From: an uncultured cyanobacterium
Lineage (GTDB): Bacteria; Cyanobacteriota; Cyanobacteriia; PCC-9006; JAAUQQ01
DNA length: 64,000 nt
Direction: 5' to 3'
Assembly (NCBI GenBank): GCA_963718615.1
Contig: OY970368.1
Coordinates: 6,031,824-6,095,823 of the forward strand
The notes below the pieces were generated by a model, which had not been told where the DNA came from, ran no database searches, and saw only the letters and a program-made list of their open reading frames with translations. A program made the position numbers and the translations under genes. Below, piece after piece: positions 1 to 9,886 of the stretch; the stretch's first letter is position 1; every line of letters begins with the position of its first letter.

Positions 1-913
1 GCAGCCGCCCCACAGCCCAGAAGCCAAAACCTTTGATCGGGTTTTCAACGAATACCGCCAACAATCCCTCCCAACCCCATCCCGTAGGGACGAACAGCCG
101 TTCGTCCCACCCCCGCCACAGCCACAGCCTCCACCAATCCCACAGCCCACCCCCTGGCCACCCCCCATCCCCCCGCGCAAAAAAACGCCGGATTCCCAAG
201 CCCAGCCAGACCCAAAAGCCCATGAAAAAGCTCCGGTCGCGGTACGGGCCGAGGCAAAACCTGAGGCAATGTCCAATCTGCATCCATTTCGGCTGGAGCC
301 AAGGGATCTACCCGTTTCCCTGGAGCAGGTGCAAATGAGCTGGCGCATGTTGCGGCGTCCGGTGGCGGAGGGGCCAGCGCGGGAGTTGGATTTGGAGGCG
401 ACCCTTCGACGAATTGGCAGCGAGGGCCTGTTTGGCGATGTGGTCTTGCGTCCGGTGCGGCGACGGCGGGCGGAGCTGTTGCTGCTGGTGGATGAGGCCG
501 GGGCGATGGTGCCATTTCGGCCTGCCTTGGGGCCGCTGCGGCGGGCCATGCAGGAAAGGCGGGTTTCCCCTGGGGTGGAATATCGCTTTACGGCCTATCC
601 CGAGGAGTATGTTTATGACCCGCAAAACCGAGGACAGGCGCTGCCGCTGCGGCAGGTGGTGTCTCGGTTGCACGAAAAGCGGACAGTGGTGATGATCTGG
701 AGTGATGGGGGCGCGGCGACAAGGCGCTATAGCGAGGAACGGGTGCGGCAAACCATCGCGTTTTTGGGTCGGCTGTTGCCCTGTGTGCGCCAGGTGATTT
801 GGCTGAATCCGTTGCCGAGGGAGCGCTGGGCAGAAAGTTCTGCCGCTGCCATTGACCAATATTTAGCCGCCACCCCAACCGGCCAAATGATTCCGTTTTC
901 CGAGTTCAAATGA
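1..913 (+). CDS. vWA-domain protein (CoxE/SAV_2336-like, MoxR-vWA ternary system type), 5'-truncated by window edge
   Basis: Frame 2 is open from base 2 (QPPHSPEAKTFDRVFNEY, Pro-rich linker) into ORF 269..913. Motifs ELDLEATL, LLLLVDEAGAMVPF (degenerate MIDAS), WSDGGAA and WLNPLP. Confidence 0.8.
   Translation, partial: QPPHSPEAKTFDRVFNEYRQQSLPTPSRRDEQPFVPPPPQPQPPPIPQPTPWPPPIPPRKKTPDSQAQPDPKAHEKAPVAVRAEAKPEAMSNLHPFRLEPRDLPVSLEQVQMSWRMLRRPVAEGPARELDLEATLRRIGSEGLFGDVVLRPVRRRRAELLLLVDEAGAMVPFRPALGPLRRAMQERRVSPGVEYRFTAYPEEYVYDPQNRGQALPLRQVVSRLHEKRTVVMIWSDGGAATRRYSEERVRQTIAFLGRLLPCVRQVIWLNPLPRERWAESSAAAIDQYLAATPTGQMIPFSEFK
84..108 (+). repeat. REP-like palindrome, family 2 (GTAG-GGACGAAC-agcc-GTTCGTCCC), read in frame inside the vWA gene
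   Basis: 5' GTAG tetranucleotide followed by a 9-bp stem. The same core recurs at 60244-60315. Confidence 0.65.
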
Positions 914-937
914 CCCATCGAACATAACCCGCCAAAT

Positions 938-2518
938 ATGACCAGCCGGACCAGCCAACAAATCCAAGCCTTTGAACGGCGCTATGGGACAGCGACGCTG
1001 GATTTGGCCTGCCATGGAGCGTTTCCGCTGACGCTGACGACGGAGTTGCTCTATTGTTTGCGGGAGCAGTTTAATTTGGATTGCGACTGGTATGGGGCGG
1101 CGGATGTGTTGCTGTCGGGGTTGTGTCGGTCGGTGGGGCACGACCTGTATGAGATGGATGGCCCTTTGCGCAATGCGCTGTTGTGGCGGCTGGCGCAGCG
1201 GCTGGAGCAGCGGTTTCCGGAGCGTTTGGAAGAGTTAGAAGCATTCATGGTGGCCTATATTCGCCATCGTTTGCAGGTGGAGGAAAATCGGCGGGCGCTG
1301 GTGCTGGGGGATCCGGAGCGGATGCACTGGACGGCGTTGGCCTGTTTGCGGTCTGAGGAAGCGATCGAAGCGATTCGTCAGGATTTGCAGCGGCTGACGG
1401 CGGCGGATGTGAACCCGGAGGAGCGGTTTCGGTTGGCGGCGTTGGTGGAGAGTTATGGGGATTTTTTGGCGGAGCAGGATTATCGACCTGTGCTGCTGGA
1501 CTGGGCAGAGAAGCTGGCGGAGGGGGAGCCGATTGATGGGCGGGCGGCGGCAGTAGCGACGGCGGCAGCAGCGGCAGCGCGGGCGGGGTTTCCGGCGTTG
1601 AAGACGTTGGAGTTTGAGCTGGCGGAGATGGTGTTGGGCGAGGATGGGCCGGATTTGCCGATTGAGCAGTTGGGAAAATTTCGGTTTGAGACAGTGACAG
1701 TGGATCGGCGGGGACGGATCAAGAAGCGGGAGGAGAAGGAGGCGTTTTATTTTGTGGAGCCTTTGGGGGAGGCGGGGCCGTTTTTGGAGATGGTGGCGGT
1801 GCAGGGCGGCAGGTTCATGATGGGATCGCCAAAAGATGAGCCGGGACGGTGGGATTCTGAGGGGCCGCAGCATGAGGTGGTGGTACCGAGTTTTTTTATG
1901 GGGCGGTATCCGGTGACCCAGGCACAGTGGCAGGCGATTGCCCAAACCTCGAAGGTGAAGCACGATCTGGAACTAAACCCATCTCACTTCAAAGGGAAAG
2001 ACCGTCCCGTGGAGCGGGCGTATTGGCAGGATGCGGTGGAATTTTGTGCGCGGCTGAGCCGGGAAACGGGGCGGGAATATCGCTTGCCGAGCGAGGCGGA
2101 GTGGGAATATGCCTGCCGAGCGGGGACGACGACGCCGTTTCATTTTGGGGAGATGATTACCCCTGGGCTGGCGAACTACAACGTTAGCTCTGCCTATAAC
2201 AAGGGGCCAAAGGGTCAATATCGAAAAGAAACGACCCCGGTGGGAAGTTTTCCGGCCAATGGGTTTGGGCTCTGTGACATGCATGGGAATGTCTGGGAAT
2301 GGTGTGCAGATCACTGGCATGAGAACTATGAGGGAGCACCGACAGATGGAAGTGCTTGGCTAGAAAAAGACTCTAAGTTGCATGTACAACGCGGCGGCTT
2401 CTGGAAACGTCGTCCCAAGAGTTGCCGCTCCGCGTCCCGCTACTTCAGCCACTTTCTCGCGCCCCGCCACTTCAGTTTCGGTTTTCGAGTGATGTGTGTT
2501 TTGCCGAGGACTCCCTAG
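938..2518 (+). CDS. FGE-sulfatase (SUMF1/C-type lectin fold) protein with N-terminal helical domain typical of vWA-linked genes; putative DGR target
   Basis: C-terminal motifs [37 protein letters not shown] and RGG..W...GFRVMC. N-terminal LACHGAFPLTLT...LLSGLCRSVGHDLYEM. Confidence 0.9.
   Translation: MTSRTSQQIQAFERRYGTATLDLACHGAFPLTLTTELLYCLREQFNLDCDWYGAADVLLSGLCRSVGHDLYEMDGPLRNALLWRLAQRLEQRFPERLEELEAFMVAYIRHRLQVEENRRALVLGDPERMHWTALACLRSEEAIEAIRQDLQRLTAADVNPEERFRLAALVESYGDFLAEQDYRPVLLDWAEKLAEGEPIDGRAAAVATAAAAAARAGFPALKTLEFELAEMVLGEDGPDLPIEQLGKFRFETVTVDRRGRIKKREEKEAFYFVEPLGEAGPFLEMVAVQGGRFMMGSPKDEPGRWDSEGPQHEVVVPSFFMGRYPVTQAQWQAIAQTSKVKHDLELNPSHFKGKDRPVERAYWQDAVEFCARLSRETGREYRLPSEAEWEYACRAGTTTPFHFGEMITPGLANYNVSSAYNKGPKGQYRKETTPVGSFPANGFGLCDMHGNVWEWCADHWHENYEGAPTDGSAWLEKDSKLHVQRGGFWKRRPKSCRSASRYFSHFLAPRHFSFGFRVMCVLPRTP
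2390..2518 (+). other. Putative DGR variable repeat VR1
   Basis: Aligns to 4991-5116. Differences cluster at codon positions 1-2 of NNC/NNT codons between invariant CGC GGC GGC, TGG, TGC CGC TCC GCG TCC CGC and GGT TTT CGA. Confidence 0.8.
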
Positions 2519-2563
2519 CCCTCTGCTCTTTTGCCCTCTTGCCCTTTGGGCTGTTGGGTTGCT

Positions 2564-2578
2564 TCGCGCGGAGCGCGA
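2564..2578 (+). promoter_or_regulatory. GC stem / GGA triloop hairpin downstream of VR1 (DGR target-recognition hairpin-like)
   Basis: TCGCGC-GGA-GCGCGA, beginning 46 nt after the stop. Counterpart at 5161-5175. Confidence 0.7.
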
Positions 2579-2665
2579 TCAAAATTTTTGGGGGTTTGGG
2601 GTGTTCGGTGGGGGTGATTCCTCTCGGTGGAACGGCAGGTGATCGAAAATGTCGCGGCGGAGACG

Positions 2666-3244
2666 GTAGGTTGGCGTTGAACGAACGTGAAACCCAACAT
2701 GCTCCAACCATGGCTTTGCCCGTTATCCACCAACCATGGCTTTGCCCGTTATCCACCAACCATGGCTTTGCCCGTTATCCACCAACCATGGCTTTGCCCG
2801 TTATCCACCAACCATGGCTTTGCCCGTTATCCACCAACCATGGCTTTGCCCGTTATCCACCAACCATGGCTTTGCCCGTTATCCACCAACCATGGCTTTG
2901 CCCGTTATCCACCAACCATGGCTTTGCCCGTTATCCACCAACCATAGCTTTGCCCGTTATCCACCAACCATGGCTTTGCCCGTTATCCACCAACCATGGC
3001 TTTGCCCGTTATCCACCAACCATGGCTTTGCCCGTTATCCACCAACCATGGCTTTGCCCGTTATCCACCAACCATGGCTTTGCCCGTTATCCACCAACCA
3101 CGGCTTTGCCCGTTATCCACCAACCATGGCTTTGCCCGTTATCCACCAACCATGGCTTTGCCCGTTATCCACCAACCACGGCTTTGCCCGTTATCCACCA
3201 ACCATGGCTTTGCCCGTTGGGTTTCGTGCCTCAACCCAACCTAC
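2666..3244. repeat. REPIN 1 (inverted REP pair, family 1) enclosing a 26-bp tandem array
   Basis: GTAGGTTGGCGTTGAACGAACGTGAAACCCAACA at 2666-2699 and inverted GTTGGGTTTCGTGCCTCAACCCAACCTAC at 3216-3244. Confidence 0.85.
2704..3218. repeat. Tandem repeat, unit CCAACCATGGCTTTGCCCGTTATCCA (26 bp), 19 full copies plus 21 nt
   Basis: Direct reading. Only three variant bases seen (2946, 3101, 3179) and no spacers. Confidence 0.95.
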
Positions 3245-3266
3245 GGGTAATTGTTTTGGCCCAATT

Positions 3267-3411
3267 GTAGGTTGGTGTTGGACGAACGTGAAACCCAACA
3301 GCCTGAGGGAGGGCGATCGCAAAGGATCATGGATGACTCAATCATGATTTTCGTACGGGCGATTTCCCCCTTGCTTAAGCTTGTTGGGTTTCGTGCCTCA
3401 ACCCAACCTAC
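3267..3411. repeat. REPIN 2 (inverted REP pair, family 1)
   Basis: GTAGGTTGGTGTTGGACGAACGTGAAACCCAACA at 3267-3300 and inverted copy at 3382-3411. Confidence 0.85.
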
Positions 3412-3447
3412 GAGGGTTGATGTGTGGGTTAATTCATTATGATTTTC

Positions 3448-3990
3448 CTAGGGACGATCGCCTATGGGTGGCTCGAAATGATGCGCAGGGGCAGCCCAAC
3501 TGTGAGGATAATACCCTTGGTTGACATAGCGATGAAAACTAGAATAAGGCCAATCTTTAGGAGCCTTGACCCATCCATGTTTGACCGGATTGTAATGAAT
3601 GTAGTCTAGGTGATTTGCCAGATCCAATTCATCGCGAATACAATGCTCCCAAAAGCGCCGTTGCCATACATTTCGTTCTTGTTTACTCTGCCGAGACAGG
3701 GAAATCACTTCTGTAGACTCACGGGGATAATGGCGGCTGAAATGGCCTTTAATTAATCTCCAGCGAGTTGAAAAATTAGCATCACCCTCCGGTAACGTCC
3801 AAATGCAATGAAGATGATCAGGCAAAATGACAGCCGCATCAATGATGAAGGGATGCTTGGTGCGCACAGACCTAAAGGACTGACGGAGAATAGCAATATG
3901 CTCTGGATCTTGGAAAAGGGGGCGGCGATCGCTCGTTACCACCGTAAAAAAATAGGTTCCTCCAGAGACTTTGGCGCGACGGTATTGCAT
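3448..3990 (-). mobile_element. rayT: REP-associated tyrosine transposase (RAYT/TnpA-REP, Y1 HUH endonuclease)
   Basis: Motifs GGTYFFT, HUH in PDHLHCIW, WQRRFWEH and catalytic-Tyr region YIHYNPVKHG. Flanked on both sides by GTAG-REP pairs. Confidence 0.92.
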
Positions 3991-4044
3991 AAAGGCGATC
4001 GCAAAGGACTGCTCCTAAAATTCCCATTCAAAACCCCATAACCC

Positions 4045-4274
4045 GTAGGTTGGCGTTGAGCGTAGCGAAACCCAACGGTTTTGGGGGCGATCGCCGGGGT
4101 TGTTGGGTTTCATTATGGGGGTTTTTGGGGAGGGGCGATCGCAAGGGCTGTTGGGTTTCATTATGGGGGTTTTTGGGGAGGGGCGATCGCAAGGGCTGTT
4201 GGGTTTCATTATGGGGGTTTTTGGGGAGGGGCGATCGCAAGGGCTGTTGGGTTTCATTCTTCAACCCAACCTAC
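4045..4274. repeat. REPIN 3 enclosing a 48-bp tandem array (~3.6 copies; starts 4084, 4132, 4180, 4228)
   Basis: REP at 4045-4076 and inverted REP at 4245-4274. Unit GGGGCGATCGCAAGGGCTGTTGGGTTTCATTATGGGGGTTTTTGGGGA contains HIP1 and part of the REP arm. Confidence 0.85.
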
Positions 4275-4312
4275 AATTGAGCTGTTGGTTTTTGTTTTTG
4301 GGGATCATCATC

Positions 4313-5116
4313 ATGGCGGAACTGACGATCAAACGCAGCATCAGAACGGCCCAATATTTCACCGAAGACTTAGGAAACGGGGTTGGACTGGATATGGTGC
4401 TAATTCCCGGTGGAACCTTCCTGATGGGCTCCCCAGAAGACGAGCCAGAACGGTGGGACGATGAAGGTCCGCAGCATGAGGTGACGGTGCCGAGCTTTTT
4501 CATGGGACGCTACCCGGTGACCCAAGCCCAATGGACAGCAATTGCCCAGAAGCGGAAGAGCAACCGCAAACTGGAACTGGATCCATCAGGTTTCAAAGGG
4601 GCAGATCGCCCGGTCGAAAACATTGAGTGGGACGACGCCATGGAGTTTTGCGCTCGATTAAGCCGAGAGACGGGACGGGAATATCGTTTGCCGAGCGAAG
4701 CGGAATGGGAGTACGCCTGCCGAGCGGGGACGACAACACCGTTTCATTTTGGCGAAATGATCACGACCGAGCTAGCTAATTACAACGGTAGTGGCTACAA
4801 CGGTGGCCCCGAAGGAGAATCTCGACAGGAGACAACCCCAGTGGGTAGCTTCCCAGCCAATGGATTTGGGCTCTGTGACATGCATGGGAATGTCTGGGAA
4901 TGGTGTGCAGATAACTGGCATAAAAACTATGAGAGAGCACCGGCGGATGGAAATGCTTGGTTAGACAAAGACTCTGGAATGTATGTACAACGCGGCGGCT
5001 CTTGGTTCTTCGCTCCCAGGATTTGCCGCTCCGCGTCCCGCGACGACTTCAGTCTCGCGCTCCGCAACAACGGTCTCGGTTTTCGAGTGATGTGTGTTTT
5101 GCCGAGGACTCCCTAG
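4313..5116 (+). CDS. Stand-alone FGE-sulfatase/C-type lectin fold protein; putative DGR target
   Basis: Likely start ATG 4313 (MAELTIKRS), since the upstream part of ORF 4100 is repeat-derived. Full FGE motif set, paralogous to the C-terminal half of 938..2518. Confidence 0.88.
4991..5116 (+). other. Putative DGR variable repeat VR2
   Basis: TGG TTC TTC GCT CCC AGG ATT TGC...CGC GAC GAC TTC AGT...CGC AAC AAC GGT CTC GGT TTT CGA shows an NNC/NNT pattern with residual AAC AAC. Confidence 0.82.
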
Positions 5117-5160
5117 CCCTCTGCTCTTTTGCCCTCTTGCCCTTTTGGCTGCTGGCTGTT

Positions 5161-5175
5161 TCGCGCGCAGCGCGA
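5161..5175 (+). promoter_or_regulatory. GC stem / GCA triloop hairpin downstream of VR2
   Basis: TCGCGC-GCA-GCGCGA, beginning 45 nt after the stop. Stem identical to 2564-2578 and loop also GNA. Confidence 0.7.
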
Positions 5176-6027
5176 TCAAATTTTCTGCCCCCCCAACACC
5201 CCATACACAATCGTCTTTTCCCGAAACCCCTGCTGCATCAACCGCACCGCAAACGCCCCCCGAACCGTCATCCAACCACTCGTCAACACCCCCAAAATCG
5301 CCTGGGGACTCAGCGCCGACTCCAACACCACATCCCAAAACGGGGCCACCGCCTCCGACCAATCCGCCGTTTGCAAATTTTCCAGGGGTAAGGTCTTGGC
5401 CATACTGGCATAATCCCCCAAGGAAACCACAAAAGGCAGATGATACAACTCATAGATTTCCTGCAACAGCCTCGTCTCCGCCGTTGTCAGCGCCGGTGGG
5501 AGCTCCCGATGACACCAGGTCGCCACGATCAGTTTCCCCCCCGGCCTCAGCACCCGACAACATTCCGCCAAAAACTGCTGCTTATCCGGCATGTGCTCCC
5601 CACTTTCCAGCGACCACACCAGATCAAAACTGGCATCGGCAAACGGCATTTCCAAGGCATTCTCCACCTGAAAATTGACCCGGTGGGCAATCCCCGCCTC
5701 CGCCGCCCTGGCGCGCGCCCGCTGAGCTTGGGTCGGGCTCAGCGTAATGCCTGTGCCATCGGCCCCAAAGCGGCGAGCCAAATAGAGCGTGCTGCCCCCA
5801 ATGCCACAGCCCACATCCAAAATCTCTTGCGCCTCCGTCACCCCCGCCCAACGGAGCAACGCTTCAATTAGGTCAATTTGGGCCTGCCGCCGCTCCTTCG
5901 GCTCCTGGCCATCCGGGCCATAGTAGCCATGGTGCATGTGCTCACCCCAAACCTGCTCCCAGAGCCCCGAAGAGGCATCATAAAACGCTTGGATGCGGCG
6001 GTAGAGTGCAGTCGTCGTTGCGGTCAT
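5176..6027 (-). CDS. Gamma-tocopherol methyltransferase-like SAM methyltransferase
   Basis: FYDASSGLWEQVWGEHMHHGYY, ILDVGCGIGGS and LESGEHMPDK motifs. Confidence 0.85.
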   Translation of the reverse strand: MTATTTALYRRIQAFYDASSGLWEQVWGEHMHHGYYGPDGQEPKERRQAQIDLIEALLRWAGVTEAQEILDVGCGIGGSTLYLARRFGADGTGITLSPTQAQRARARAAEAGIAHRVNFQVENALEMPFADASFDLVWSLESGEHMPDKQQFLAECCRVLRPGGKLIVATWCHRELPPALTTAETRLLQEIYELYHLPFVVSLGDYASMAKTLPLENLQTADWSEAVAPFWDVVLESALSPQAILGVLTSGWMTVRGAFAVRLMQQGFREKTIVYGVLGGQKI

Positions 6028-6124
6028 TGAGAGCCCCTTTAGATTGCCATGTTGTCCAGTATGCGCTACATCTCATCATGGAAGATCTATCCGATGACGC
6101 TTGAAAGCGGGAATTGTGAGCGTT

Positions 6125-6610
6125 ATGGAGTTTCATGGCAAAGTGATTTTGGGGATTGATCCGGCGATCGCCTCCATCGGTTACGCCGCCATTTGCGATG
6201 CCACCGTGATCGACTACGGCGTGATCAAAACCCCCGCCTCAGCCAATCTGTACGATCGCCTCAAACAAATTCATCTGGATATCTGCGAACTCTGTACGAT
6301 CGTCAAACCCGAAATCGTCGCCCTAGAAATGCCCTTCTTTAGCCGCGAAAACACCAACGCCAACAAGGTTTTGCGAGCGCTAGGGGTGATTCAAATGGCC
6401 CTAGGGGATTCTGGATTGCCGGATCCGATTTTTCTGCACCAATCCCAGGTGAAATCCGCCGTGGCTCAGTATGGAGCCGATAAGGGGGAAATTCAACTGG
6501 CGGTGGCATTTTTGTTTAATTTGTCGTCTCCGCCCAGACCGGACGATGCGGCGGATGCTTTGGCGATCGCCTACGCCGCCCAGATCGGAATGCGGGCGAA
6601 TGTGCGATAG
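6125..6610 (+). CDS. ruvC: Holliday junction resolvase RuvC family
   Basis: ILGIDP, ALEMPFF and PDDAADALAIA catalytic motifs. Start 6125 (ATG) or 6101 (TTG). Confidence 0.85.
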   Translation: MEFHGKVILGIDPAIASIGYAAICDATVIDYGVIKTPASANLYDRLKQIHLDICELCTIVKPEIVALEMPFFSRENTNANKVLRALGVIQMALGDSGLPDPIFLHQSQVKSAVAQYGADKGEIQLAVAFLFNLSSPPRPDDAADALAIAYAAQIGMRANVR

Positions 6611-6641
6611 GGAAATCCGGTCATGGGACCCGAGGAGAAGC

Positions 6642-7568
6642 ATGAATCAAGGCTGGACCTACGAAGAACGCATTGACCGAACCGCAGCAGGGCAAACGGT
6701 GCTGGCCTACTATGTTCAGCGCTATCGACATTCTGGGGAGGGGGAATGGCGATCGCGCATCGAGTCCCAGCAGGTTTTTCTAGACGGATTGCCCACGACC
6801 CCAGACCACCCCCTCCAGCGGGGTCAGGTGTTGACCTATCATCGTCCCCCCTGGCAAGAACCCGAGGTGCCGCTGGACTTTGATCAGGTCTATGCAGATG
6901 AGGACCTATGGGTGATCAACAAACCCTCTGGACTTCCCGTTATGCCGGGAGGCGGGTTCTTGGAGAATACCTTGCTAGGACAACTGCAACGACAGTATCC
7001 CACGGATACACCCGTGCCGATTCATCGCTTGGGTCGAGGGACCTCGGGGTTGGTGTTGTTGGGGCGATCGCCCTTGGCAAAATCTGAATTGACGCGGCAA
7101 ATGCGCGATCGCCAAATCCGCAAATTTTATCGAGCCCTCATACCAAGCTACAACGCAGCGGGTGAATTGTTTCCTCCACAGCTGACGATTCAAACTCCCA
7201 TCGGTAAAGTGCCCCATCCGACCTTAGGCGAGATCTTTGCCGCCACCCCAGCGGGTCGCTTTGCCCAGAGCGATTGCCAGGTGCTTCGGCAAGATGCGCA
7301 AACAACTCTGCTTGAAGTTGAAATTTTCACAGGACGCCCCCACCAAATTCGGATTCATCTCGCTGCTGTGGGCTATCCTCTCCTCGGGGATCCGCTCTAC
7401 CAACCGGGCGGACAACCTCGACTCGTGGCGAATGCTCAAGGAAAACTCCCGACACCGGGTGATTGTGGCTATAAACTCCATGCCTTCCGACTCGTATTTC
7501 GCCATCCGCGCTCCCAACAGCCCTTGACCCTCGAATGCTTACCCCCCAGCTTGGAGTTGTTGTCGTAG
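6642..7568 (+). CDS. RluA-family pseudouridine synthase
   Basis: NKPSGLPV, HRLGRGTSG, TGRPHQIRIH and GDPLY motifs. GAGGAG RBS before ATG 6642. Confidence 0.85.
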   Translation: MNQGWTYEERIDRTAAGQTVLAYYVQRYRHSGEGEWRSRIESQQVFLDGLPTTPDHPLQRGQVLTYHRPPWQEPEVPLDFDQVYADEDLWVINKPSGLPVMPGGGFLENTLLGQLQRQYPTDTPVPIHRLGRGTSGLVLLGRSPLAKSELTRQMRDRQIRKFYRALIPSYNAAGELFPPQLTIQTPIGKVPHPTLGEIFAATPAGRFAQSDCQVLRQDAQTTLLEVEIFTGRPHQIRIHLAAVGYPLLGDPLYQPGGQPRLVANAQGKLPTPGDCGYKLHAFRLVFRHPRSQQPLTLECLPPSLELLS

Positions 7569-8177
7569 GGCTCGCAGGGCACTGCTGGTATTTTGTTCAC
7601 TGGCCCGTTGCATGGTTTCATGGATTAGAGTTTCTAGGAGAATTCCTGGGAAAAAACGACTATATTCCACGACCTGATAGCCATCATTTTGAAATTGATA
7701 AATCTTAAGCTGTTTCCGTTCATAAAGCCAAACCTCAGGCACACCGTAGGGCACATAATCTTCGATGTCGGTGTAGCTAGTAACATCAATTTCAATGACT
7801 AAGTCTGGTGGTGGTTCAGTCTCCCAATCAATGCGTTCTTTCCCCGCAACCGCAACCCAATGGTCAATATAAAAACAATAGTCCGGTTCCACACCTCGCA
7901 CTTCCGGCAAATCCATCGTGATGGGCGTAAAAGCTTCGTAGTCTTGACCTTGGTTGTCTAGCAGGGCGATCGCAACCATCGCAATTACATGAGCATCCCG
8001 GCCATGAACGGGTAACGGCGACATAAACAGAATTTCTCCGGGACGATATTTGATGCGGGGAAGTTGGCGATCGCCTAACCGGTGAACCAGCTCCTGATAG
8101 TCCTGCCAAGTTCCAGGGGTACGCAGGACCGTGCCTGGGGGTAAGTGAATCTGCTCGGGTGTGACAACTGCATACAT
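7539..8177 (-). CDS. Uma2-family (PD-(D/E)xK) endonuclease
   Basis: EPDYCFY, PPDLVIEID and GVPEVWLY motifs. Confidence 0.88.
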   Translation of the reverse strand: MYAVVTPEQIHLPPGTVLRTPGTWQDYQELVHRLGDRQLPRIKYRPGEILFMSPLPVHGRDAHVIAMVAIALLDNQGQDYEAFTPITMDLPEVRGVEPDYCFYIDHWVAVAGKERIDWETEPPPDLVIEIDVTSYTDIEDYVPYGVPEVWLYERKQLKIYQFQNDGYQVVEYSRFFPGILLETLIHETMQRASEQNTSSALRALRQQLQAGG

Positions 8178-8239
8178 GGGCCGGATCCTCTTCGCACAAA
8201 TAGCCTTGTGGGTTGTTCTGTTGTCTGTATTTTACAGTC

Positions 8240-9886
8240 CTATTTTAACGTTGCAGCGGCAAGGCGACAGGCGCGGGTCGTGATTGCCATCATGGTCAGT
8301 GTGGGACTTTGCCAACCGGAAGAAACCCAGCAAGCGCCATCGGTCACGAGCAAATTGGGTGCAGCCCAGCATTGATTTTGAGCATTCAGCACTGAGTTGC
8401 TAGGGGAACTCCCCATGGGGGCACCCCCCACCTCATGGATATAAAATCCTGGGGGGGCTGCAAAGGCCATGGTCTCTTCCATCCGATGAATATAACTGCC
8501 TAAAACAGGCACATGATAGAGGTCTGTGAGGGCCATGGATTCTCCGCCTGCGCGCTTGATAATTTCCTCAATTTGTTGATTCATATGCTTGAGCATGCGC
8601 TGTTCATTGTCGGACCAAGCACAGCTAATATGAGGGGTTGGAATGCCCCAAGCATCGGTGAGATGGGGATTGAGGTGCATGTAGTTTTCATAACGCGGCA
8701 AAACTTCTCCATGGGCGATCAAAAAGCCGATTGCTCCTTTGCCAACCTTGCGCAAAAAACCAGGCAAATCCGATCGCTGAATCCCGCCCCAGATGCCATA
8801 GCCCCGCAGAAACTCCTGATCTTGCTGTTTCAAATTACAAAAATTGGGAATAAAGAAACTTTCACTACCTGACAAATTAAAGGCTTGCTCTGGGGGTTCG
8901 ACGCCGGGGATAAAAAAGAATCGGCAGGTGGAAACATGGTCCATCAAATTGTGCCCCAGTAATCCTGATTCATCGACCCACCCTTCTGCTTGAAACGGCT
9001 GGGTGGAATGCAGAAGAATCCTGACGGATTCCAAGGTCGAGGCACAAAGAATCACTAGTTTTCCGAGGACTTCGTGACGCTGTTTCGTCTGGCGATCGAC
9101 AAAACAGACCCCCTGCGCTTTTTTATGATTGGGGTCATACAGGACATGACTCACGACGGCATTCGATTGCAGCGTAACCTGACCAGTGGCCAATGCAACT
9201 TTGAGCGCAGCCCCCTGGCTGGAGGAAGCGGGCCAAGGTTTCTCCGCCGTGGCTTGATGGAGCGGAAAGCCTCGGGAAGGAATGAGTTTGCGATCGGGCC
9301 ACCGTTGCTCAACCCTCTGTTTGAGCTGCTGTTCCGCCGGAGTTAAGGGAGCCGCCGTACGGTAGTGGCCATCGGGAAGTTGGGGAAGGCCGTTGCGATC
9401 GCCCTGCACCCCCAAAAACTGCTCCAATTCGCTGTAGTAAGGCGCTAGATCGGCATAGCCAATCGGCCAGTCCTGACCCTGGCGATCGCGACTCGCCGCC
9501 TTAAATTCATAGTCTGATAAACGCAGCGTAATTCCTCCCCAGGTCAGACTTTTCCCCCCCACTTGTCGACCCCGCATCCAGCAGTAGGGTTTGTCCGCAG
9601 GGGTGGTATAGGGATTCTCAATTTCGTCAGTAAACAGGTTAGGATTGGCCTTCCAGTAGCCGGGGTGGGCCGCCTGAATCGATTGCCGCTGGGTGACAAA
9701 AAGGTTAGACAGTCGCTGGGCCATGGCAACTGGACCGTTACGCAAATCGTTAGGCGTTACATCCCGTCCGGCTTCGAGTACCAAGACCATTAATCCCTCT
9801 TCGGCTAGGGTCTTAGCGGCAATCCCGCCCGTTGCGCCGGAGCCCACAATAATAGCGTCGTAAACTTGATTGATGGTCGAGTTCAT
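8240..9886 (-). CDS. GMC-family FAD oxidoreductase
   Basis: GSGATGG dinucleotide-binding motif, GGKSLTWG, HEVGGAPMG and SPTLTMMA. Confidence 0.9.
   Translation of the reverse strand: MNSTINQVYDAIIVGSGATGGIAAKTLAEEGLMVLVLEAGRDVTPNDLRNGPVAMAQRLSNLFVTQRQSIQAAHPGYWKANPNLFTDEIENPYTTPADKPYCWMRGRQVGGKSLTWGGITLRLSDYEFKAASRDRQGQDWPIGYADLAPYYSELEQFLGVQGDRNGLPQLPDGHYRTAAPLTPAEQQLKQRVEQRWPDRKLIPSRGFPLHQATAEKPWPASSSQGAALKVALATGQVTLQSNAVVSHVLYDPNHKKAQGVCFVDRQTKQRHEVLGKLVILCASTLESVRILLHSTQPFQAEGWVDESGLLGHNLMDHVSTCRFFFIPGVEPPEQAFNLSGSESFFIPNFCNLKQQDQEFLRGYGIWGGIQRSDLPGFLRKVGKGAIGFLIAHGEVLPRYENYMHLNPHLTDAWGIPTPHISCAWSDNEQRMLKHMNQQIEEIIKRAGGESMALTDLYHVPVLGSYIHRMEETMAFAAPPGFYIHEVGGAPMGSSPSNSVLNAQNQCWAAPNLLVTDGACWVSSGWQSPTLTMMAITTRACRLAAATLK

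Follow-up and report, generated by a model that had tools for sequence, protein, structure and literature searches.

Two C-type lectin genes of a cyanobacterial genome, probably left behind by a decayed diversity-generating retroelement

Degenerate loci of diversity-generating retroelements (DGRs), and target genes of such elements that stand without a reverse transcriptase (RT), have already been described in cyanobacteria, and the pair of genes examined here appears to be a clean new example. The genes lie in a stretch of 64,000 nucleotides (hereafter the window) from an uncultured cyanobacterium, namely positions 6,031,824 to 6,095,823 of contig OY970368.1, which form the last 64 kb of a 6,095,823-bp single-contig genome rated 100% complete. 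Among the closest described systems, the available text of Doré et al. 2024 (PMC10907252) reports 'degenerate' DGR loci without machinery, as well as transposons and repeats resembling miniature inverted-repeat transposable elements (MITE-like repeats) in DGR loci. The degenerate loci of Thiohalocapsa PB-PSB1 described there resemble the window in that targets with variable repeats (VRs) are present, key machinery is missing or pseudogenised, and transposons and MITE-like repeats are found inside; they differ from it in that a complete RT and template repeat (TR) of the same class exist elsewhere in that genome and in that most of the loci are still diversified, some of them in trans (PMC10907252). 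According to the same text, clade 5A loci pair a long with a short C-type lectin (CLec) target next to a MoxR-like ATPase, and the DGRs of cyanobacteria (clade 5E) are commonly tied to MoxR/vWA systems. A further precedent comes from the accessible part of Vallota-Eastman et al. 2020 (PMC7517822), where the authors suggest that, after a good variant has become fixed, the components of diversification are removed. The cases given are all3226 of Anabaena/Nostoc PCC 7120 and a degraded cassette of Anabaena sp. 90, with a variable-protein paralogue, remnant TR-VR homology and, as far as that part of the text goes, no RT gene or pseudogene nearby; IS200/IS605-family transposases lie near the variable proteins, which is a likeness to the window (PMC7517822). 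The available part of Wu et al. 2018 (PMC5758913) adds nothing specific. The window differs from the PCC 7120 and Anabaena sp. 90 cases in that both targets are in their original positions and a putative RT stub marks the deletion. PCC 7120 reportedly still has a DGR elsewhere.

The two genes, their variable ends and the block of sequence common to both are as follows.

938..2518, + strand: gene 1, long DGR-type target of 526 aa, PF03781 E 3.9e-56 at aa 284-518
4313..5116, + strand: gene 2, short, CLec-only DGR-type target of 267 aa, PF03781 E 4.3e-63
2389..2508, + strand: VR1, probable fossil variable repeat, from codon alignment to the TR and VRs of genome G007 (a relative of the same family); exceeding both VR2 and the relative's TR by one codon
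4990..5106, + strand: VR2, probable fossil variable repeat, equal in length to the relative's TR; in blastn, 4989-5111 matches the TR of locus L014 of G007 at 73%
2478..2547 and 5076..5145, + strand: identical block of 70 nt, covering the VR 3' end, a GC-rich end resembling a site for initiation of mutagenic homing (IMH), the stop codon and a conserved post-stop element

An earlier, sequence-only reading of the window had taken both for FGE/CLec genes, and the two PF03781 matches bear this out; the domains end at most 8 residues from the C-termini, with the VR at the 3' end of each gene. In gene 1 the FGE-sulfatase/CLec domain is C-terminal to an extension without a Pfam family. The gene 1 family is common across cyanobacteria at 50-63% identity, the nearest protein among 5.8 billion being 63% identical. 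Gene 2 most likely starts at the ATG at 4313, judging from the sequence, since a longer open reading frame (ORF) from 4100 merely runs through a 48-nt tandem repeat. The CLec domains of the two genes are 78.9% identical overall. Compared by sequence with solved structures, gene 2 matches PvdO (3e-45), several FGEs (about 5e-22) and TvpA of Treponema denticola (PDB 2Y3C; gene 2 aa 121-261, E 1.8e-20). TvpA, a DGR target of known structure whose CLec fold is of the FGE type, likewise has its VR at the C-terminal end of the fold, but it belongs to another organism and another N-terminal context, and gene 2 is closer by sequence to PvdO and to true FGEs.

The history of the pair is best read against an intact relative. 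RVT_1 searches of 30 relatives found RTs of ~360-390 aa, one of them in G007 at locus L014. In the orientation of the window, L014 consists of iSTAND, MoxR-like AAA and VWA_CoxE genes, a 522-aa CLec target, a convergent RT, bAvd, the TR and a 270-aa CLec target, so that the RT (a 369-aa ORF), bAvd (PF22296, 3.4e-20) and the TR all lie between the two targets. Set against the L014 TR, the two VRs of that locus show changes at 12/30 and 13/30 of its adenines and at none of its other positions (0/84), and the cassette is a textbook DGR. When window positions 1-9000 were compared with L014 by blastn, the vWA gene matched at 69.5% (341-843), the N-terminal part of gene 1 at 72.8% and gene 2 at 72.9% from its start, with no match between about 2590 and 4313. 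At the protein level the N-terminus of gene 1 is 65% identical to the 522-aa target, which is preceded by the same iSTAND - AAA - vWA trio as gene 1. The window and the cyanobacterial clade 5E cassette (PMC10907252), with L014 as its exemplar, thus have in common the orthologous genes, their order, the VR scaffold, the IMH-like end, the post-stop element and a hairpin; in contrast to L014, the window is without RT (except for ~30 putative codons), bAvd and TR, and holds REP-like repeats, a Y1 transposase and tandem arrays instead.

The variable ends themselves carry the expected signature. Adenine positions were defined independently of the window, from the L014 TR, which served as a proxy for the cognate TR. 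VR1 and VR2 differ at 20/30 of the TR-adenine positions and at 6/84 other positions (Fisher p 3.7e-10), and since the differences fall on the adenines of the relative's TR, a DGR origin of both tips is well supported. This bias and the synteny with the intact L014 cassette uphold the sequence-only reading in its claim that these are DGR-type target genes. Its alignment holds too, as the final ~120 nt of the two genes match codon for codon, and the codons it listed are present (VR1 AGT / TAC TTC AGC CAC TTT / CAC TTC AGT TTC; VR2 ATT / GAC GAC TTC AGT / AAC AAC GGT CTC). The template it had deduced is very close to the real TR of the relative, TGG AAC AAC AAT CCG AGG AAT ... CGC AAC AAC AAC AAT ... 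CGC AAC AAC AAC ATC GGT TTT CGT. What it missed is that VR1 is one codon longer than VR2 and that there are 6 non-adenine differences between the two, 3 of them at third codon positions, i.e., the bias is strong and not exclusive. The extra codon of VR1 and its non-adenine differences from VR2 do not fit continued homing from one TR.

A 400-nt contig of low depth from a soil metagenome (run X1) is 88% like 2288-2691 and has 3 nt missing at 2443, which gives a 4-codon form of the VR1 block, and in the same run a 223-nt contig resembles 1236-1458 at 98.7%. The sample may contain a fairly close relative, the contigs being short, low in depth and of uncertain origin.

The sequence-only reading had proposed that a template elsewhere in the genome serves today to diversify both genes in trans, and had named the absence of a template or DGR RT from the genome or from close relatives as evidence that would count against this. 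Neither is found in this genome; both are found in close relatives. PF00078 (RVT_1) gave 0 candidates in the whole genome, and the best match in tblastn of five DGR RTs against the genome had E 0.46. A profile hidden Markov model (HMM) built from five DGR RTs found nothing significant among 21,813 six-frame ORFs of >=80 aa (best E 2.3), nor did an RT motif pattern (regular expression) match any of the six-frame ORFs. As to bAvd, 8 candidates in the genome were scored with PF22296, 0 of them at E<=1, and tblastn with the L014 Avd reached at best E 2.2. The check that had been suggested, a BLASTN search of the VR regions against the genome in expectation of an AAC-rich template beside RT and Avd, was run for both regions as blastn-short with word size 7; it returned the two VRs themselves and weaker matches to a different VR family with its degenerate TR stub, and no third copy of the VR scaffold. 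With no RVT_1, DGR-RT, bAvd or matching template in a 100%-complete genome, diversification from elsewhere in the genome at the present day finds no support. The TR-like stub (genome 5133912) was considered as template for the window VRs and rejected, as it has many non-adenine mismatches and another scaffold and is degenerate.

The different VR family thus revealed is the second in this genome, which has in all nine VR-like gene ends with a common post-stop motif, plus the one degenerate, AAC-rich, non-coding TR stub. At locus L001 (genome 5127000-5141000), and especially at L001:4830-7879, three tandem CLec genes have VR-like ends, with no RT or Avd; the stub lies at L001:6911-~7030, and the sequence upstream of it is similar to that flanking the L014 TR. 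The decay of L001, the decay of the window and the failure to find machinery imply that this genome contains no working DGR locus and at least two that have decayed. Upstream in L001 are an IS1 transposase fragment, a broken AAA gene and a gene for an 819-aa protein with a poly-gamma-glutamate hydrolase domain. Four more VR-like ends with the same scaffold and post-stop motif are found at genome 5504433(-), 3707978(-), 3273143(-) and 944666(-); the last of these is absent from the genome's 12 PF03781 matches and may be a fragment.

The space that RT, bAvd and TR occupy in L014 is filled in the window by the following features, where REP stands for repetitive extragenic palindromic, RAYT for REP-associated tyrosine transposase and TRF for Tandem Repeats Finder.

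2582..2722, - strand (aligned part 2612-2707): putative remnant of a DGR RT gene, last ~30 codons, convergent with gene 1 (tblastn and DGR-RT HMM)
2704..3218, no strand: tandem array of 26 nt x 19.8 copies, 98% matches (TRF), standing where the RT body would be
about 2667-2700, 3216-3245, 3268-3300, 3383-3412, 4044-4078 and 4246-4275: REP-like palindromes flanking the Y1 transposase, of the type GTTGGGTTTC...AACCCAAC
3448..3990, - strand: IS200-like Y1 transposase (RAYT-like), PF01797 E 1.1e-6 (weak), single copy with one distant paralogue
4084..4258, no strand: tandem array of 48 nt x 3.6 copies with GCGATCGC sites (TRF), just 5' of gene 2, about where the relative has Avd and TR; found only at this locus

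When the 1.85-kb interval was searched by tblastn, aa 340-365 of the RT of locus L012 matched with E 2.5e-4, and the RTs of L013 and L016 matched at the same place and in the same register with E 0.14 and 0.25. Among 95,575 short six-frame ORFs of the genome (30-79 aa), the sole match to the DGR-RT HMM at E<=10 is window 2582-2722(-), with E 0.42. The match lies ~60 nt from the stop of gene 1, against 78 nt in L014, and both its position and its orientation are as the synteny predicts. These alignments point, weakly, to 2612-2707(-) as the stump of an RT gene. The statement of the sequence-only reading that no RT, Avd or TR lies nearby was therefore correct for Avd, TR and the body of the RT, and overlooked the apparent 3' remnant of ~30 codons.

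The 26-nt unit occurs in 19 copies genome-wide within 3 mismatches, all of them in this array, and since all three frames of the array are open, several 'proteins' of 80-280 aa, built on a 26-aa repeat, turn up in the output of ORF finders. The REP-like palindromes number 23 genome-wide under a strict pattern, and together with the Y1 transposase they may constitute a RAYT/REP system.

The identity of the two genes past their stop codons, which the sequence-only reading had pointed out, was confirmed: the stops are at 2516-2518 and 5114-5116 and the 70-nt block extends 29 nt beyond. In word-7 blastn the surroundings of the block amount to 76 nt with 1 mismatch; 2497-2526 is identical at 30/30 positions, and the first mismatch is at 2548. 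The boundary of VR and TR in L014, marked here by a slash, reads ...CCGAG/G in the VR versus ...CCGAG/C in the TR, and both genes of the window have the same VR end. Conservation against L014 is likewise high over the IMH-like end, stop codon and post-stop motif. Each of the nine VR-like ends has this pyrimidine-rich post-stop motif, CCCTCTGC.CT.TTGCC..., downstream of its stop codon (in the window at 2519-2547 and 5117-5145), and the coding sequence is far less well conserved than the motif, both between the paralogues and in comparison with the relative at family level. Further downstream each gene has a predicted hairpin.

2564..2578, + strand: GC hairpin of 6 bp with a loop of 3 nt; an A/T run follows (fold prediction)
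5161..5175, + strand: GC hairpin 3' of gene 2, homologous to 2564-2578 (fold prediction)

The same hairpin is predicted in both L014 targets too, and its distance from the stop is 45-50 nt in each of the four cases. Its whole-segment fold z-scores are weak (-2.5 to -0.8), and for this reason no structured element is claimed on energy grounds. The hairpin may serve in DGR target recognition or as an intrinsic terminator.

We read the region as a decayed DGR, with a probability of roughly 0.85: the RT-Avd-TR core between the two targets has been lost, repeats stand in its place, and the VRs are no longer rewritten. The ancestor would have been a cassette of the order iSTAND - MoxR-like AAA - vWA - long CLec target - RT (convergent) - bAvd - TR - short CLec target, in which both VRs would have been written by adenine-specific mutagenic retrohoming from one TR. 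The core would have been lost later, with REP-like palindromes, the IS200-like Y1 transposase and locally amplified tandem repeats replacing it and only the last ~30 codons of the RT left at the scar; we infer this order of events, and likewise a role of the REP/Y1 element in the deletion. Since no other RT, no Avd and no matching TR is found in the genome, the two VRs would no longer be rewritten. The once-hypervariable tips are, as far as the sequences allow us to judge, most likely frozen by now, and would change by ordinary mutation only, which would already have added the codon indel and the non-adenine substitutions. The genes may well continue to serve the neighbouring MoxR/vWA system as sensors of fixed specificity.

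Several points weigh against this account. The RT remnant is short and its match is weak when set against the whole genome (E 0.42 with the HMM, 0.95 in tblastn), and plasmids or phages may exist outside the one-contig assembly. The 70-nt block is 100% identical, yet divergence amounts to 7% at the non-adenine positions of the VRs and to ~10% in the CLec sequence immediately upstream. Simple neutral decay since the loss of the RT predicts a few differences in the block, which calls for constraint, for recent homogenisation or for non-adenine differences that are older than the loss. Up to ...CCGAG, the sequence of the block would derive from the TR that served both genes. For the block as a whole, constraint as a recognition element, a terminator or through some other function is possible, as is recent homogenisation; it is also possible that the non-adenine VR differences predate the loss, e.g., through homing at different times from a changing TR. 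A more ambitious version of core loss, which we regard as speculative and improbable, would make it a recurrent 'lock-in', in which REP/Y1 elements excise the mutator after useful specificities have arisen, the 70-nt block and the hairpin are under selection, and the nine orphan VRs stay acceptors for an incoming DGR core (by phage, plasmid or transformation).

Of the explanations that compete with decay, diversification by a DGR core on a plasmid, phage or other replicon outside the one-contig assembly, either ongoing or still possible, survives best, and we consider it quite unlikely. The cis elements beside the VRs are intact, with their 70 nt identical in both genes, and extrachromosomal DNA would go unseen in a single-contig assembly. 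Yet the syntenic RT is chromosomal and stands between both targets in every relative with enough flank, and the apparent RT stub is still in place here; moreover, the unequal VR lengths and the non-adenine differences speak against one current template, and nothing in the data points to such a replicon. A loss of the RT that is very recent or reversible, where the REP/Y1 insertion would be a population polymorphism and other cells or strains would keep an active core, strikes us as very unlikely. It could draw on the identical 70-nt block, which suggests recent homogenisation or constraint, and on the run X1 contigs with their 98.7% likeness to gene 1 over 223 nt and their 88% likeness over 400 nt in the 4-codon VR1 form; the contigs have the limits already given, however, and the decay of the second DGR locus, as well as the lack of any Avd match in the genome, points to an old, genome-wide loss. 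Trans-acting DGRs with remote targets are documented in the available text of Doré et al. 2024 (PMC10907252), and the IMH-like end and downstream hairpin are perfectly preserved in both genes, yet continued diversification by RT, Avd and TR elsewhere on the same chromosome is highly implausible given that an RT of whatever kind, bAvd and a matching TR are all absent from the genome, that its sole TR-like stub is degenerate with a different scaffold, and that the VRs are unequal in length with 6 non-adenine differences. That no DGR was ever involved, the tips having diverged by ordinary paralogue divergence or by positive selection on ligand-binding residues (for which CLec proteins are expected to be under diversifying selection, and whose domains here are only 78.9% identical overall), deserves next to no credence against differences that fall on the adenines of an independently found TR, synteny with an intact DGR and the presence of the RT remnant.

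On the preferred reading of a decayed element, the window would show how a DGR ends, with the targets and the MoxR/vWA genes intact, the mutator core cut out and an RT stub at the scar. DGR-type VR signatures alone are no proof of ongoing hypermutation, and for annotation genes 1 and 2 are better treated as probable fixed-specificity CLec sensor paralogues than as a novel trans-acting DGR system.

Public sequencing data say little about the variability of the locus. No public sequencing run was found to hold it, the best shares of words being 0.10 and 0.07 (2 runs), and the contigs obtained from runs for 900-2700 are mostly fragments of CLec genes of other organisms, with no spanning piece, and are uninformative on VR heterogeneity. 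A search of public contigs with the N-terminus of gene 1 gave 3 loci, of which 1 is the contig of the metagenome-assembled genome that contains L014 and 2 are unrelated weak matches; in an order-level search of 7 other genomes a match was found in 2 only and an orthologue in 1 only. Metagenomic relatives of gene 1 with an adjoining RT include L026 and L027, which have a full RT (1.3e-184), and L025, where a ~100-aa RT fragment lies between VR and TR (L025:1512-2296) and the TR has a ~24-nt insertion; L025 looks like another cassette in decay. L024 (5085-6349) has a VR identical to that of L025 and no RT HMM match. As for the layout of L014 (L014:2455-4230), the A-rich strand of the TR is opposite to bAvd and RT, i.e., the TR is divergent from avd-RT, and the RT is convergent with the long target, which makes it an uncommon DGR layout. 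An Avd candidate on the minus strand of L014 (2634-3026) was discarded as an antisense artefact, the real bAvd being on the plus strand at 2646-3017.

The window opens within the last gene of the trio that precedes gene 1.

1..913, + strand: 3' part of a VWA_CoxE-like gene (PF05762), whose start lies 5' of the window; third of the iSTAND - AAA (MoxR-like) - VWA trio

The genes of the trio, directly 5' of gene 1 (L028), match iSTAND (PF19995, 3.6e-10), AAA_5/AAA (1.5e-10) and VWA_CoxE (6.2e-10). A MoxR-like AAA ATPase gene and a vWA gene thus both adjoin the CLec target, a pairing that the locus has in common with MoxR-vWA (VMAP-type) ternary conflict systems whose sensor is diversified by a DGR (Kaur et al., cited in PMC10907252). 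A gene for a NACHT protein of 1069 aa with an NNH3 N-terminal domain and pentapeptide repeats (L028:1252-4461) is located ~6 kb 5' of the window, just before the iSTAND-AAA-vWA genes, and may form with them a cluster of conflict or sensor systems.

A survey of the class was made on an even sample of 300 genomes, each >=95% complete, with a match to the N-terminal domain of gene 1 counted at E<=1e-10 and a DGR-RT match at E<=1e-30. The gene-1-type N-terminal domain was present in 43 genomes, a DGR RT in 51 and both in 22, which leaves 21/43 with the domain and without a DGR RT; these counts are indicative only, since some of the weaker N-terminal matches may come from proteins other than CLec targets and genes can escape notice in draft assemblies. 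On these figures, surveys based on the RT miss many former targets, and surveys based on VR-like ends over-call activity. Partial DGR-RT matches, some with internal stops, were seen in the sampled genomes G101, G194, G292, G279, G208, G074, G126 and G219, and with partial matches in many genomes of the sample, RT pseudogenisation seems to be frequent in the class.

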